A stretch of 64,000 bases of DNA from a virus (taxonomy: Duplodnaviria > Caudoviricetes): the IMG/VR virus record IMGVR_UViG_3300020049_006942. The stretch is one strand, 5' to 3'. This document shows positions 2,463-6,078 of the stretch, piece after piece; positions within the stretch are counted from its first letter, which is position 1; every line of letters begins with the position of its first letter. The notes under the pieces were generated by a model. The model had not been told where the DNA came from and ran no database searches. It worked only from the letters and a program-made list of their open reading frames with translations. The position numbers and the translations under genes are program-made.

Positions 2463-2539
2463 GGTTCTGTAGCTCAGTGGAATAGAGCAAAAGATTTCTA
2501 ATCTTTAGGTCGTTGGTTCGAGTCCAACCTGAATCACCA
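2463..2539 (+). tRNA. tRNA-Arg (anticodon TCT)
   Basis: Cloverleaf: AGCTCAGTGG D-arm, AAAGA-TTTCTAA-TCTTT anticodon arm, GGTTCGAGTCC T-arm, encoded CCA; one U:U mismatch in the acceptor stem. Confidence 0.93.
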
Positions 2540-3970: not shown

Positions 3971-4582
3971 AAATCGTTAAAGTGAAAAGAAGCCAGCAGT
4001 AGCCAATCTGTAGAGGATAAATTCTAAGGGAATCTACCTAAGCGTTCTTAGGAAATGTGCTTAGGTTCTTAGGTAAAATGCCTAAGAAATCGTGTCCAGG
4101 TTCCCTTAGAATTAGTCGGCTGGGAGTGGCTTTCGATGCCCGTCCTTCGGTAGAGACACAGTGGAGAGAATCCCCGACTTGTCAAATAAAAGATTTCAAA
4201 CTGTCCCGACCTTGCGCAAGGTTCCAAATCACACTGCGAACGTTTATCGACTGAATTAGAAAAAGATTCAAACTGAATCTATCTCGGCATCCCCGTCCGA
4301 AAACGTTACCAGTGACACACAATAATCGGGCGGGACTGATCTATAAACTATCATGGCAGAGATGCAAGCGATAAAATGAAATGAATCGAAAAAGAATCAA
4401 GCTGCATCTATCCGACTAGGTACTGCGCATATCCTGCACAGAGACGCACAGCGAGCAGAAGGGCACGTTTTAGACGCTTTTGCCGGTCCTGAGTGTCGCG
4501 GAATACCCGGAAGCACTAAAGACCGCTTAAAACGCCTTTAAACGGGCAAAAAAGAAAATGAACTGAAAAGATAAAAAAGAGC

Positions 4583-4610
4583 TTGCATAATGAAATCTAT
4601 AAAGTAAGAT
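4583..4610 (+). promoter_or_regulatory. sigma70-type promoter for the structured leader + DUF932 gene
   Basis: TTGCAT-16nt-TAAGAT preceded by an A-rich tract. Confidence 0.55.
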
Positions 4611-4616
4611 GCTCAT

Positions 4617-4776
4617 ACCGAAAGGGATCGCCCCTAACGGATGCAGTGAAACCGCTTCACTCTATGGCTTGCAAAGTCTGCATTGGTGCCAGTGCGAAGC
4701 TGACCAGAATTAGCTTCAAAAGGTCGTAATGGAGGAAGTCCGGCCCCTCTCCTAATTTACGGGATCGTAAAAGATT
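4617..4776 (+). ncRNA. Candidate structured RNA upstream of the twister cleavage site
   Basis: Dense hairpins: ATGCAG/CTGCAT enclosing GTGAA/TTCAC and GGCTT/AAGTC; GAAGCT/AGCTTC with loop GACC able to pair with downstream GGTC; TTTACG/CGTAAA; no credible ORF. Confidence 0.45.
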
Positions 4777-4828
4777 AATGCAGCCTCATTCTGAGACAGT
4801 TACAAGCCTGTTAAAATGCAGAGTAATC
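4773..4828 (+). ncRNA. Twister self-cleaving ribozyme (type-P1-like)
   Basis: GAUU^AAUGCAGC-CUCA(UUC)UGAG-ACAG UUACAAGC CUGU-UAAAA-UGCAGAGUAAUC: P2 UGCA/UGCA, P3, P4, T1 UUAC:GUAA, T2 GC:GC; carries the UAAUGCAGC, GUUACAAGC and GCAGAGUAA blocks of the env9 twister; P1 is short. Confidence 0.8.
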
Positions 4829-4856
4829 CACACCAAAAAATAGAAAATACAAAGTT

Positions 4857-6035
4857 ATGTCACACGAAATCGAAAAACCAATCGACAAAGTTCTCAGCAC
4901 TCGCGGTACCGAATGGCACGGCCTCGCCGAGCATCTGGAAACCATCGACAAGGAAACCATCCGCCAGAAAGGTCTTTTCTTCCCTATCGGCAAAAGTCAG
5001 GTTGTGAACTGGCACGGGGAATCTGCAATGCAGGAAAGCATTGCGAGCCTCGAAACCCTGCTGACAACGCCAGGAACGACGAAAGCAGGCATTCTGAAAG
5101 CCTTTCAGGAATACAGCCGCAATCTGGCATTCATCGGCACGCATCAAAGCGTTACGGCTGATCTGACTGATTGCCGCCCTGATCTGGTCGAAGCTGGCGA
5201 GGAAACCCGCATCCCTCTCGGCATTCCGAAAAATTCGTATGAAATCATCACGAATGAGCAAGCCTTCGACGTGGTGGGCAGGGTTTTCCCTAACTGCAAC
5301 GTCTCGACTGCTGGCACCTTGCGCGGCGGGAAGGTGTTTTTCCTTAGTCTCGACATGGATGGAAAGACCGAGTACACCGGCCCCCGTGGTGATAAGTACC
5401 TGCAATTCTGGGATGTCGTCACCTCTCACGATGGTACGATTGCCTTCCGCATCTACGATTCCGGTACGCGTATCGTGTGCATGAACACGCTCCGCGCCTC
5501 ACTCAGCAACAAAGGCGACCTTAATATGGTCGTATATCACTCTAAGAATGCACTTGAAGCTCTTAATCGGGTTTCTGTGAATCTCTCTGAGCTTGTGGCA
5601 GGGCGGGAATCTTACTTCGATTCCCTAGGCTACCTCGACACCGTTTCCTGCTCCATCGAAGATGCCCGGTACCTTGCCAGTGCATTCCTCAACAATCGCG
5701 GCAGCAAAGAGGGTGAAGAGCCTAAAGAACTTTCTACGCAGATTTTCAATCGTGCGGAAGAAATCGGAAACCTCTTCAAAACCGGACAGGGGAACCGTGG
5801 GGCAAATTACTATGATCTGCTCAACGGCATGACTGAGTGCTTCACCTGGGGAATGGGAACGGGTGCGAAACTTTCCAAGGCTGAAAAGCTGATGAAATCC
5901 CGCGACGGCACCGCTGCCGAAGTTAAGGAAGAATTCTACAACTTCCTAATTTCCGGTCCCGAAATCCTCGAACGTGCGCGGCTCCAAGGTGAGAAACTTT
6001 TCCGTGAAAAGGAACTTGCCAAGGCTTCCAAGTAA
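4857..6035 (+). CDS. DUF932 (DUF945)-family phage protein
   Basis: WHGL N-terminus, TAGTLRGGK, SHDG...RIVCMNTL motifs; visibly GC-richer than the late region. Confidence 0.8.
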   Translation: MSHEIEKPIDKVLSTRGTEWHGLAEHLETIDKETIRQKGLFFPIGKSQVVNWHGESAMQESIASLETLLTTPGTTKAGILKAFQEYSRNLAFIGTHQSVTADLTDCRPDLVEAGEETRIPLGIPKNSYEIITNEQAFDVVGRVFPNCNVSTAGTLRGGKVFFLSLDMDGKTEYTGPRGDKYLQFWDVVTSHDGTIAFRIYDSGTRIVCMNTLRASLSNKGDLNMVVYHSKNALEALNRVSVNLSELVAGRESYFDSLGYLDTVSCSIEDARYLASAFLNNRGSKEGEEPKELSTQIFNRAEEIGNLFKTGQGNRGANYYDLLNGMTECFTWGMGTGAKLSKAEKLMKSRDGTAAEVKEEFYNFLISGPEILERARLQGEKLFREKELAKASK

Positions 6036-6047
6036 GTGATCCATGAA

Positions 6048-6078
6048 GGAGGGCATAGGGAAATACTCTATGCCCTCC
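6048..6078 (+). terminator. Strong 3' hairpin (terminator or stability hairpin) after DUF932
   Basis: GGAGGGCATAGGG-AAATA-CTCTATGCCCTCC, no U-tail. Confidence 0.5.

Follow-up and report, generated by a model that had tools for sequence, protein, structure and literature searches.

Twister ribozymes are built from three essential helices (P1, P2 and P4), with the termini in P1, from the optional stems P0, P3 and P5, and from two pseudoknots, T1 and T2; about ten nucleotides of loops L1 and L4 are strongly conserved and the cleavage dinucleotide is U-A (N-A) (PMC5408937). Thousands of twisters are known, yet what they do for bacteria and phages is an open question; for the intercistronic twisters and hammerheads of bacteria and DNA phages a role in mRNA or transcript processing has been suggested but is unproven (PMC6765202). 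Two precedents link self-cleavage within a 5'UTR to the gene that follows. In the glmS ribozyme, cleavage leaves a 5'-OH mRNA and sets the fate of that mRNA (summarised in PMC6765202), and in RNA viruses of fungi and plants cleavage by 5'UTR ribozymes, twisters included, affects expression of the downstream ORF (PMC13725137). The RAGATH candidates (named in PMC11061315) are structured RNAs from the neighbourhood of genes associated with twisters and hammerheads.

The locus described here lies in a 64-kb stretch of phage DNA, analysed as a whole and called the window below, and consists of a type-P1 twister in the leader of a gene that encodes a DUF932 protein. Like other type-P1 twisters (RF03160; PMC5408937) it has helices P1, P2 and P4, the optional P3, T1 and T2, the loop nucleotides and a U-A site by P1; it departs from their consensus in a P1 of only 3 bp and in the A-U pairs of T1, where the consensus has three G-C pairs. 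It resembles the intercistronic phage twisters in its P2 (UGCA), in its L4 loop, in lying on the same strand as the genes and in preceding a start codon by tens of nucleotides. However, the usual copies lie 10-40 nt after the stop codon of a protein gene, whereas the place of the upstream 'cistron' is taken here by a non-coding RNA that is conserved and promoter-proximal. With glmS the locus shares a self-cleaving RNA in a 5'UTR, cleavage being predicted in the present case, but the fold is unrelated, and glmS uses a GlcN6P cofactor and is tied to one gene, whereas here the link to the gene is sporadic. The RNA-virus ribozymes differ in belonging to eukaryotic RNA viruses and to cap-independent translation, rather than to a DNA phage and bacterial translation. 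As with the RAGATH RNAs, a conserved structured RNA stands beside a twister, but the leader of the window matches no RAGATH model (E up to 10). Several RAGATH motifs are included in Rfam. RiboJ-type insulators are engineered, hammerhead-based elements placed between promoter and RBS, which remove the leader and leave a hairpin-capped 5'-OH mRNA; unlike these, the window case would be natural and the part removed would be a conserved RNA. The ribozyme class and the kind of host are already known. What is new is a cassette composed of a promoter-proximal, constrained and unclassified RNA plus a twister, with natural variants that have or lack it.

The window is a portion of a large T4-like myovirus genome and encodes a portal protein, a tail sheath and a baseplate wedge. 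The phage is an environmental one, parts of the window being present in public wastewater, activated-sludge and freshwater metagenome runs. DNA relatives of the window were sought among 50,697 phage records with 0 matches, and a scan of IMG/VR with a single protein also gave 0 matches. Three wastewater runs labelled 'RNA-Seq' cover the region in fragments, as contigs only, and are probably DNA. On the + strand upstream of the DUF932 gene, a block of small genes extends to 4254 and is followed by about 600 nt of non-coding DNA; beyond the DUF932 stop codon come a hairpin and then convergent genes. The lack of a T run kept that hairpin off the list of the terminator scan. The features of the locus are collected in Table 1.

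Table 1 Features of the DUF932 locus (window coordinates; locus handles and leader forms are explained in the text)
Feature	Position	Strand	Basis or remark
Promoter-like motif CTTGCA, 17 nt, TAAGAT	4582-4610	+	Conserved across loci; putative promoter
5'-terminal hairpin H1	4617-4642	+	Fold prediction; kept in L140
Variable hairpin H2, first cassette element	4643-4662	+	Stem replaced in L139 and L142, pairing kept
Central leader domain	4664-4717	+	Alignment and consensus fold
H-type pseudoknot	4722-4752	+	S1 4722-4726 with 4741-4745; S2 4731-4735 with 4746-4750
Hairpin with GGAU(C) loop	4757-4770	+	Just 5' of P1; same loop motif in Forms A and B
Type-P1 twister ribozyme	4773-4828	+	Rfam RF03160, 49.3 bits; covariation in P1, P2, P3, P4, T1 and T2
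P1	4773-4775 with 4826-4828	+	3 bp
Predicted scissile bond (cleavage dinucleotide)	U4776/A4777	+	Adjoins P1
P2	4779-4782 with 4817-4820	+	
T2 pseudoknot	4783-4784 with 4806-4807	+	J2-3 with L4
P3	4785-4788 with 4792-4795	+	
P4	4797-4799 with 4808-4810	+	
T1 pseudoknot	4801-4803 with 4823-4825	+	L4 with L1
A-rich spacer before start codon, no Shine-Dalgarno sequence	4830-4856	+	Read from sequence; homologous to L140 5'UTR
DUF932 protein gene, 392 aa	4857-6035	+	PF06067; phrog_1221
11-bp hairpin, possible terminator	6048-6078	.	Read from sequence; between convergent genes

A preliminary description of this DNA, made from the letters alone, had named the twister elements and proposed a search with the Rfam twister models, an absence of any match being taken as evidence against the assignment. 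All of the named elements are where it had placed them, and RF03160 (twister-P1) matches 4772-4829 end to end with a score of 49.3 bits and E-values of 5e-10 in a 551-nt search and 6e-8 over the whole window. This score is below the Rfam gathering score of 67.2, which is a cut-off set by the curators and not a structural feature. The default Rfam scan of the window, which reports two tRNAs only, misses the twister for this reason, and we detected it by use of E-value thresholds in place of the gathering score. The shortfall has three sources: a minimal P3, a P1 of 3 bp and T1 triplets that are off-consensus on both strands, the last being a change that a covariance model cannot credit. Otherwise the upper-case loop positions of the RF03160 consensus are retained, and the two T1 strands have changed in a compensated manner. 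The nearest-neighbour model gives the isolated twister its correct fold, and 4773-4828 is the single twister of the window. The brevity of P1, which had been raised as a caveat, is answered by the finding that P1 is dispensable for twister cleavage (PMC5408937).

We fetched loci encoding DUF932 homologues, built two twister models of our own and searched the loci with them. The window twister scored 77-88 bits with these models, and seven more twisters were found, each upstream of a DUF932 homologue. They lie in six related loci, L139, L142, L143, L148, L050 and L047, the proteins of which are 95, 67, 67, 50, 31 and 35% identical to that of the window, respectively. L047 has two copies, of which that at 2897-2985 carries the optional P5. 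RF03160 matches all eight copies with 35-52 bits (E 1e-8 to 5e-4), in every case below 67.2. In the eight-copy alignment, 95.4% of the pair cells hold standard pairs and 14 of the 19 pairs have changed on both sides; none of 500 shuffles reached the observed pairing and covariation, and slid controls were 21-33% paired. P2 is fully paired with covariation in all four of its pairs, P4 is likewise 100% paired, and P1 and P3 are each 87.5% paired. The three pairs of T1 and the two of T2, which were not in the covariance model that produced the alignment, are 100% paired, and three of these five have changed on both sides. UAA at 4776-4778 is invariant in all eight copies. A chance resemblance with an inactive ribozyme could appeal to the score under the gathering threshold and to the 3-bp P1, but it is effectively refuted by the E-value of 6e-8 and by eight homologous copies that keep all the helices and both pseudoknots through compensatory changes. 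We conclude that 4773-4828 is confirmed at the level of sequence as a genuine type-P1 twister, which has the defining structural features of the class and is predicted to self-cleave.

Transcription of the locus would start near 4617, as judged from the position of the CTTGCA-N17-TAAGAT motif. This motif has its sole exact match in the window at this site and is found at the same distance in L139, L142, L143, L148, L260, L145 and L147, and a generic sigma-70 scan did not list it. The length of about 240 nt given for the DUF932 leader depends on this putative start, the start being placed by the motif. A small ORF at 4583-4729 was considered and discarded, since its start falls within the promoter motif and its frame is broken by indels in L142 and L139. 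Hairpin H1, the first element of the predicted transcript, is kept in a relative without the cassette (L140) and hence is part of the basic 5'UTR rather than of the cassette. The 5'UTRs of such cassette-free relatives consist of a 5' hairpin followed by an A-rich leader.

The cassette comprises about 190 nt (about 4643-4832), the structured leader RNA plus the twister, and sits between promoter-proximal H1 and the A-rich translation-initiation region. L140 and L141, the proteins of which are 68% identical to that of the window, can be aligned to the window, to L139 and to L142 over promoter, H1 and A-rich 5'UTR; what they lack is exactly the stretch of about 190 nt from H2 through the end of the twister. 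RNA and ribozyme are thus present or absent together and behave as one unit, which supports this side of the preliminary description. It had also proposed a check of whether DUF932 homologues retain the pair. The twister is present in only 7 of about 170 DUF932 loci and the distribution is sporadic, with close relatives that lack the cassette. Three forms of leader were distinguished. Form A (window, L139 and L142) and Form B (L143 and L148) precede a twister and are not alignable overall, but they have in common a core just upstream of it, formed by the pseudoknot and the GGAU(C)-loop hairpin. In Form C (L260, L262 and L282) the leader is long and ribozyme-free and its conserved core differs, from which it follows that a conserved leader need not be released to function. 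A hammerhead reading of the Form-C core was discarded, the conserved box lacking the essential G and A and there being no Rfam match.

The leader appears to be under stronger constraint than the adjacent DUF932 gene. Between the window and L142, identity is 89% in the leader and 91% in the twister versus 66% in the coding sequence, 42% at third codon positions and 65% upstream. The Form B pair, L143 and L148, gives 77.5% for the leader and 64.7% for the twister, versus 54% for coding sequence, 37% for third positions and 39% upstream. Against L139 the leader (80%) and the synonymous sites (79%) of the window have diverged at similar rates, and the leader changes are located in stems and are compensated. 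Conservation of the upstream RNA, the lack of which would have spoken against the preliminary description, is thus borne out together with its structure, which has covarying pairs. The leader of the window is nearest to that of L142, whereas its protein is nearest to that of L139, a discordance for which selection need not be the only cause, as the cassette may have been exchanged recently. More generally, the departure of leader form from the protein tree could be owing to very strong selection, cassette exchange or both.

Given this patchiness on the DUF932 tree, with Form A, Form B and cassette absence all within one protein clade of about 68% mutual identity and Form B common to proteins only 52% identical, we weighed whether recombination between phage genomes spreads the cassette as a selfish or neutral insertion, which the twister only renders harmless by excising it from the mRNA. 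The clean boundaries of insertion or deletion are in keeping with such an element. However, no repeats, target duplications or mobility genes were seen at the boundaries, the cassette is found only at one type of locus, and its non-ribozyme part is more constrained than the adjoining gene, which a passive passenger would not need. We therefore consider an insertion of this kind very improbable.

The leader was described at first as hairpin-dense. Covariation supports its helices, but its folding energy is ordinary for its composition (z -0.41). In H2, four pairs have changed on both sides among the window, L139 and L142, and indels of 1-3 nt in this hairpin exclude a conserved reading frame for the leader. 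The central domain contains a nearly invariant 36-nt block (4664-4699) and hairpins at 4680-4695 and 4696-4717. For the H-type pseudoknot, in which S1 and S2 are separated by a 4-nt UNAY loop, all ten pairs are standard in all five sequences of Forms A and B, and the first two positions of S1 and the third of S2 each show three pair types, this covariation being drawn from only about four independent lineages. As the MAFFT alignment mis-registers stem S2 of Form B, the pairs were counted by script. A generic descriptor of the pseudoknot matched 97 times in 1.9 Mb and a chance match is expected about once per 40 kb, so support for the pseudoknot comes from its conserved position and covariation and not from its existence. 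One match of this descriptor, in L012, is inside an ORF. The pseudoknot first proposed, GACC:GGUC, fits the three Form-A sequences, but it competes for the same bases with the pseudoknot of Table 1, which is better supported and recurs in Form B. An HDV-like reading of the latter was rejected, the element being too small and lacking P3 and P4. The GGAU(C)-loop hairpin has one compensatory pair between L143 and L148 and may be equivalent to P0, an optional stem of twisters (PMC5408937). Other than the twister, no Rfam family, RAGATH included, matched 4400-4950 at E up to 10, and none matched the 13 related loci at E up to 1. Exact-pattern scans of IMG/VR for the pseudoknot and for two conserved leader blocks gave 0 matches.

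The most likely mechanism, and one that we think probable, is that self-processing by the twister separates the leader RNA from the DUF932 mRNA. Transcription from near 4617 would proceed through leader, twister and DUF932, and the twister would fold once 4773-4828 had been made and cut between U4776 and A4777. One product would be a leader RNA of about 160 nt with a 2',3'-cyclic phosphate end. The other would be a DUF932 mRNA with its 5'-OH on the compact ribozyme body, followed by an unstructured A-rich stretch for ribosome loading; in this layout of folded 5' element and A-rich leader the cleaved mRNA would match that of the cassette-free relatives. The ribozyme would then be a built-in processing site or insulator, such that one promoter makes a constrained leader RNA and leaves the mRNA unburdened by it. 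For this scheme we infer the start site, cleavage in vivo and the fates of both products.

Cleavage may not be constitutive, since in the full-length folds of Form A the leader captures a strand of twister P2. The leader stretch 4666-4673 is complementary to 4779-4785 of the twister (the 5' strand of P2 together with T2), and each of the three Form-A precursors has this helix in its minimum-energy fold, the pair probability being 0.8-0.96. If the ribozyme were gated and allosteric, 4666-4673 would trap 4779-4785 during transcription until a signal refolded the leader, and DUF932 would be expressed only after regulated self-cleavage; release might be brought about by a ligand, by a protein of the phage or the host, or by the pseudoknot at 4722-4752 as it forms. 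The duplex energy of the blocking helix is -10 kcal/mol, the cost of imposing the twister fold is only about 5 kcal/mol (tertiary contacts not counted), and the leader strand of the helix lies within the nearly invariant block. Moreover, position 4722 can pair with either 4701 or 4745 but not with both at once, and in L139 both of these partners are changed with pairing kept, a hint of two conformations. However, nearest-neighbour folding takes no account of T1, T2 or the leader pseudoknot. The helix is found in only three closely related sequences, both of its strands are invariant and so show no covariation, and Form B, L050 and L047 lack a comparable long-range pairing. There was also no match to an aptamer family. 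We regard gating as distinctly unlikely.

The preliminary assignment of the 4857-6035 ORF to DUF932 is sound: PF06067 matches residues 120-330 with 75.4 bits (cut-off 23; 7.5e-21). The score of 78.9 bits with TIGR03299, a subfamily of phage/plasmid-like proteins, is below the NCBIfam cut-off of 110.7, indicating a related non-member. There are 105 DUF932 homologues. An AlphaFold model of the protein has a pLDDT of 88, and a PDB sequence search with the protein gave no match, Foldseek with the model gave none at E <= 0.001 and the best Z from VIA-align, 5.0, was at noise level; there was no convincing PDB fold match. PADLOC had no match for DUF932, and we found no biochemical function for DUF932 in the literature.

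These data bear on a further possibility, that the leader is a stand-alone trans-acting phage ncRNA (protein-binding, a decoy or a partner of DUF932) and the twister serves only to make its 3' end. Its strong conservation, which includes predicted single-stranded stretches such as the nearly invariant 36-nt block, gain or loss of the cassette as a unit, the pseudoknot and GGAUC-loop hairpin common to two leader forms and the lack of a matching Rfam family for the leader would all suit such an RNA. However, the analysis gave evidence of neither a target nor a partner, the fold of DUF932 offered no hint of RNA binding, and the motif was found only in front of DUF932 genes, the majority of which lack it. 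Form-C leaders, moreover, remain attached to the mRNA. The preliminary suggestion that the leader partners DUF932 or acts as an anti-defence decoy is unsupported: only 7 of about 170 loci have the twister, close relatives do not have the cassette and others have a different conserved leader that is ribozyme-free. We judge a trans-acting role to be unlikely, although deserving of some weight, and retain twister self-processing of the transcript as the preferred reading.

The locus is a tractable one for the question of twister role, having one ribozyme, one putative promoter and one downstream gene. Natural variants with the cassette, exactly without it, or with a different, ribozyme-free conserved leader aid such testing, and a non-ribozyme part more constrained than the adjacent gene adds to the tractability. 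The locus could discriminate among the twister as an insulator, as a means of maturing a new phage RNA and as a regulated switch.

Twisters of the same sequence type are widespread. A pattern scan of IMG/VR found at least 122, similar ones preceding other genes; none of the listed matches has DUF932 downstream. The listed twisters typically follow one ORF by 10-40 nt and precede the next by 20-50 nt, a placement that fits the general processing-site role suggested previously (PMC6765202). As twisters predicted to be functional score below the Rfam gathering threshold, default annotation probably under-counts those of phages.

Leaders of the type that lack the ribozyme (Form C), found in three of the related loci, L260, L262 and L282, share a core of about 73 nt that lies in the leader of the DUF932 gene. 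The cores are 79-84% identical, whereas the proteins encoded by these loci are only about 48-51% identical, and the closing stem has three compensatory pairs. The core contains no twister and has no match in Rfam, and we consider it a candidate new RNA motif.

In the related locus L047 two twisters lie on the same strand (2557-2639 and 2897-2985), and same-strand pairs are also present in eight other loci (L150, L154, L182, L209, L218, L223, L226 and L230), the spacing being 0.3-1.6 kb with one or two small ORFs enclosed. An RNA cut out between paired twisters would begin with a 5'-OH and end in a 2',3'-cyclic phosphate. As these are the ends joined by RtcB-type ligases, it is conceivable that such phage RNAs are circularised or re-ligated. 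Contigs from the wastewater sequencing runs (X1-X3) match the window only in the 31-nt twister core (4794-4825) and have unrelated flanks; they are evidently other twister ribozymes from the same communities.

Several leaders have GATC within or adjoining hairpin loops (window 4626-4629 and 4764-4767; L047 at about 2490), and a Dam-family methylase is encoded nearby in L145. These sites could be relevant to contacts between RNA loops or to methylation of the DNA. Start codons in the window (5'UTR 4830-4856), L143, L148 and L260 lack a Shine-Dalgarno sequence, and an A-rich AAAUAGAAAA-like motif recurs in these 5'UTRs about 10-15 nt 5' of the AUG, a combination that may indicate a host with Shine-Dalgarno-independent initiation.

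A second conserved non-coding unit (window 4385-4560) is located upstream of the DUF932 promoter. It gave zero Rfam matches and has counterparts in L142, L143 and L145. The window also encodes two phage tRNAs, and the related contigs L142, L144 and L148 have tRNAs 1-2 kb 5' of their respective DUF932 genes.

Coordinates of the Form C cores, non-coding unit segments and tRNA genes
Feature	Location	Remarks
Form C core	L260 1279-1351; L262 777-848; L282 348-420	In DUF932 leaders
A-rich box, then conserved motif	Window ~4400-4425	Part of unit 4385-4560
Segment containing GAGTGTC	Window ~4490-4510	Part of unit 4385-4560
Two phage tRNA genes	Window 2463-2536 and 2560-2632	74 and 68 bits
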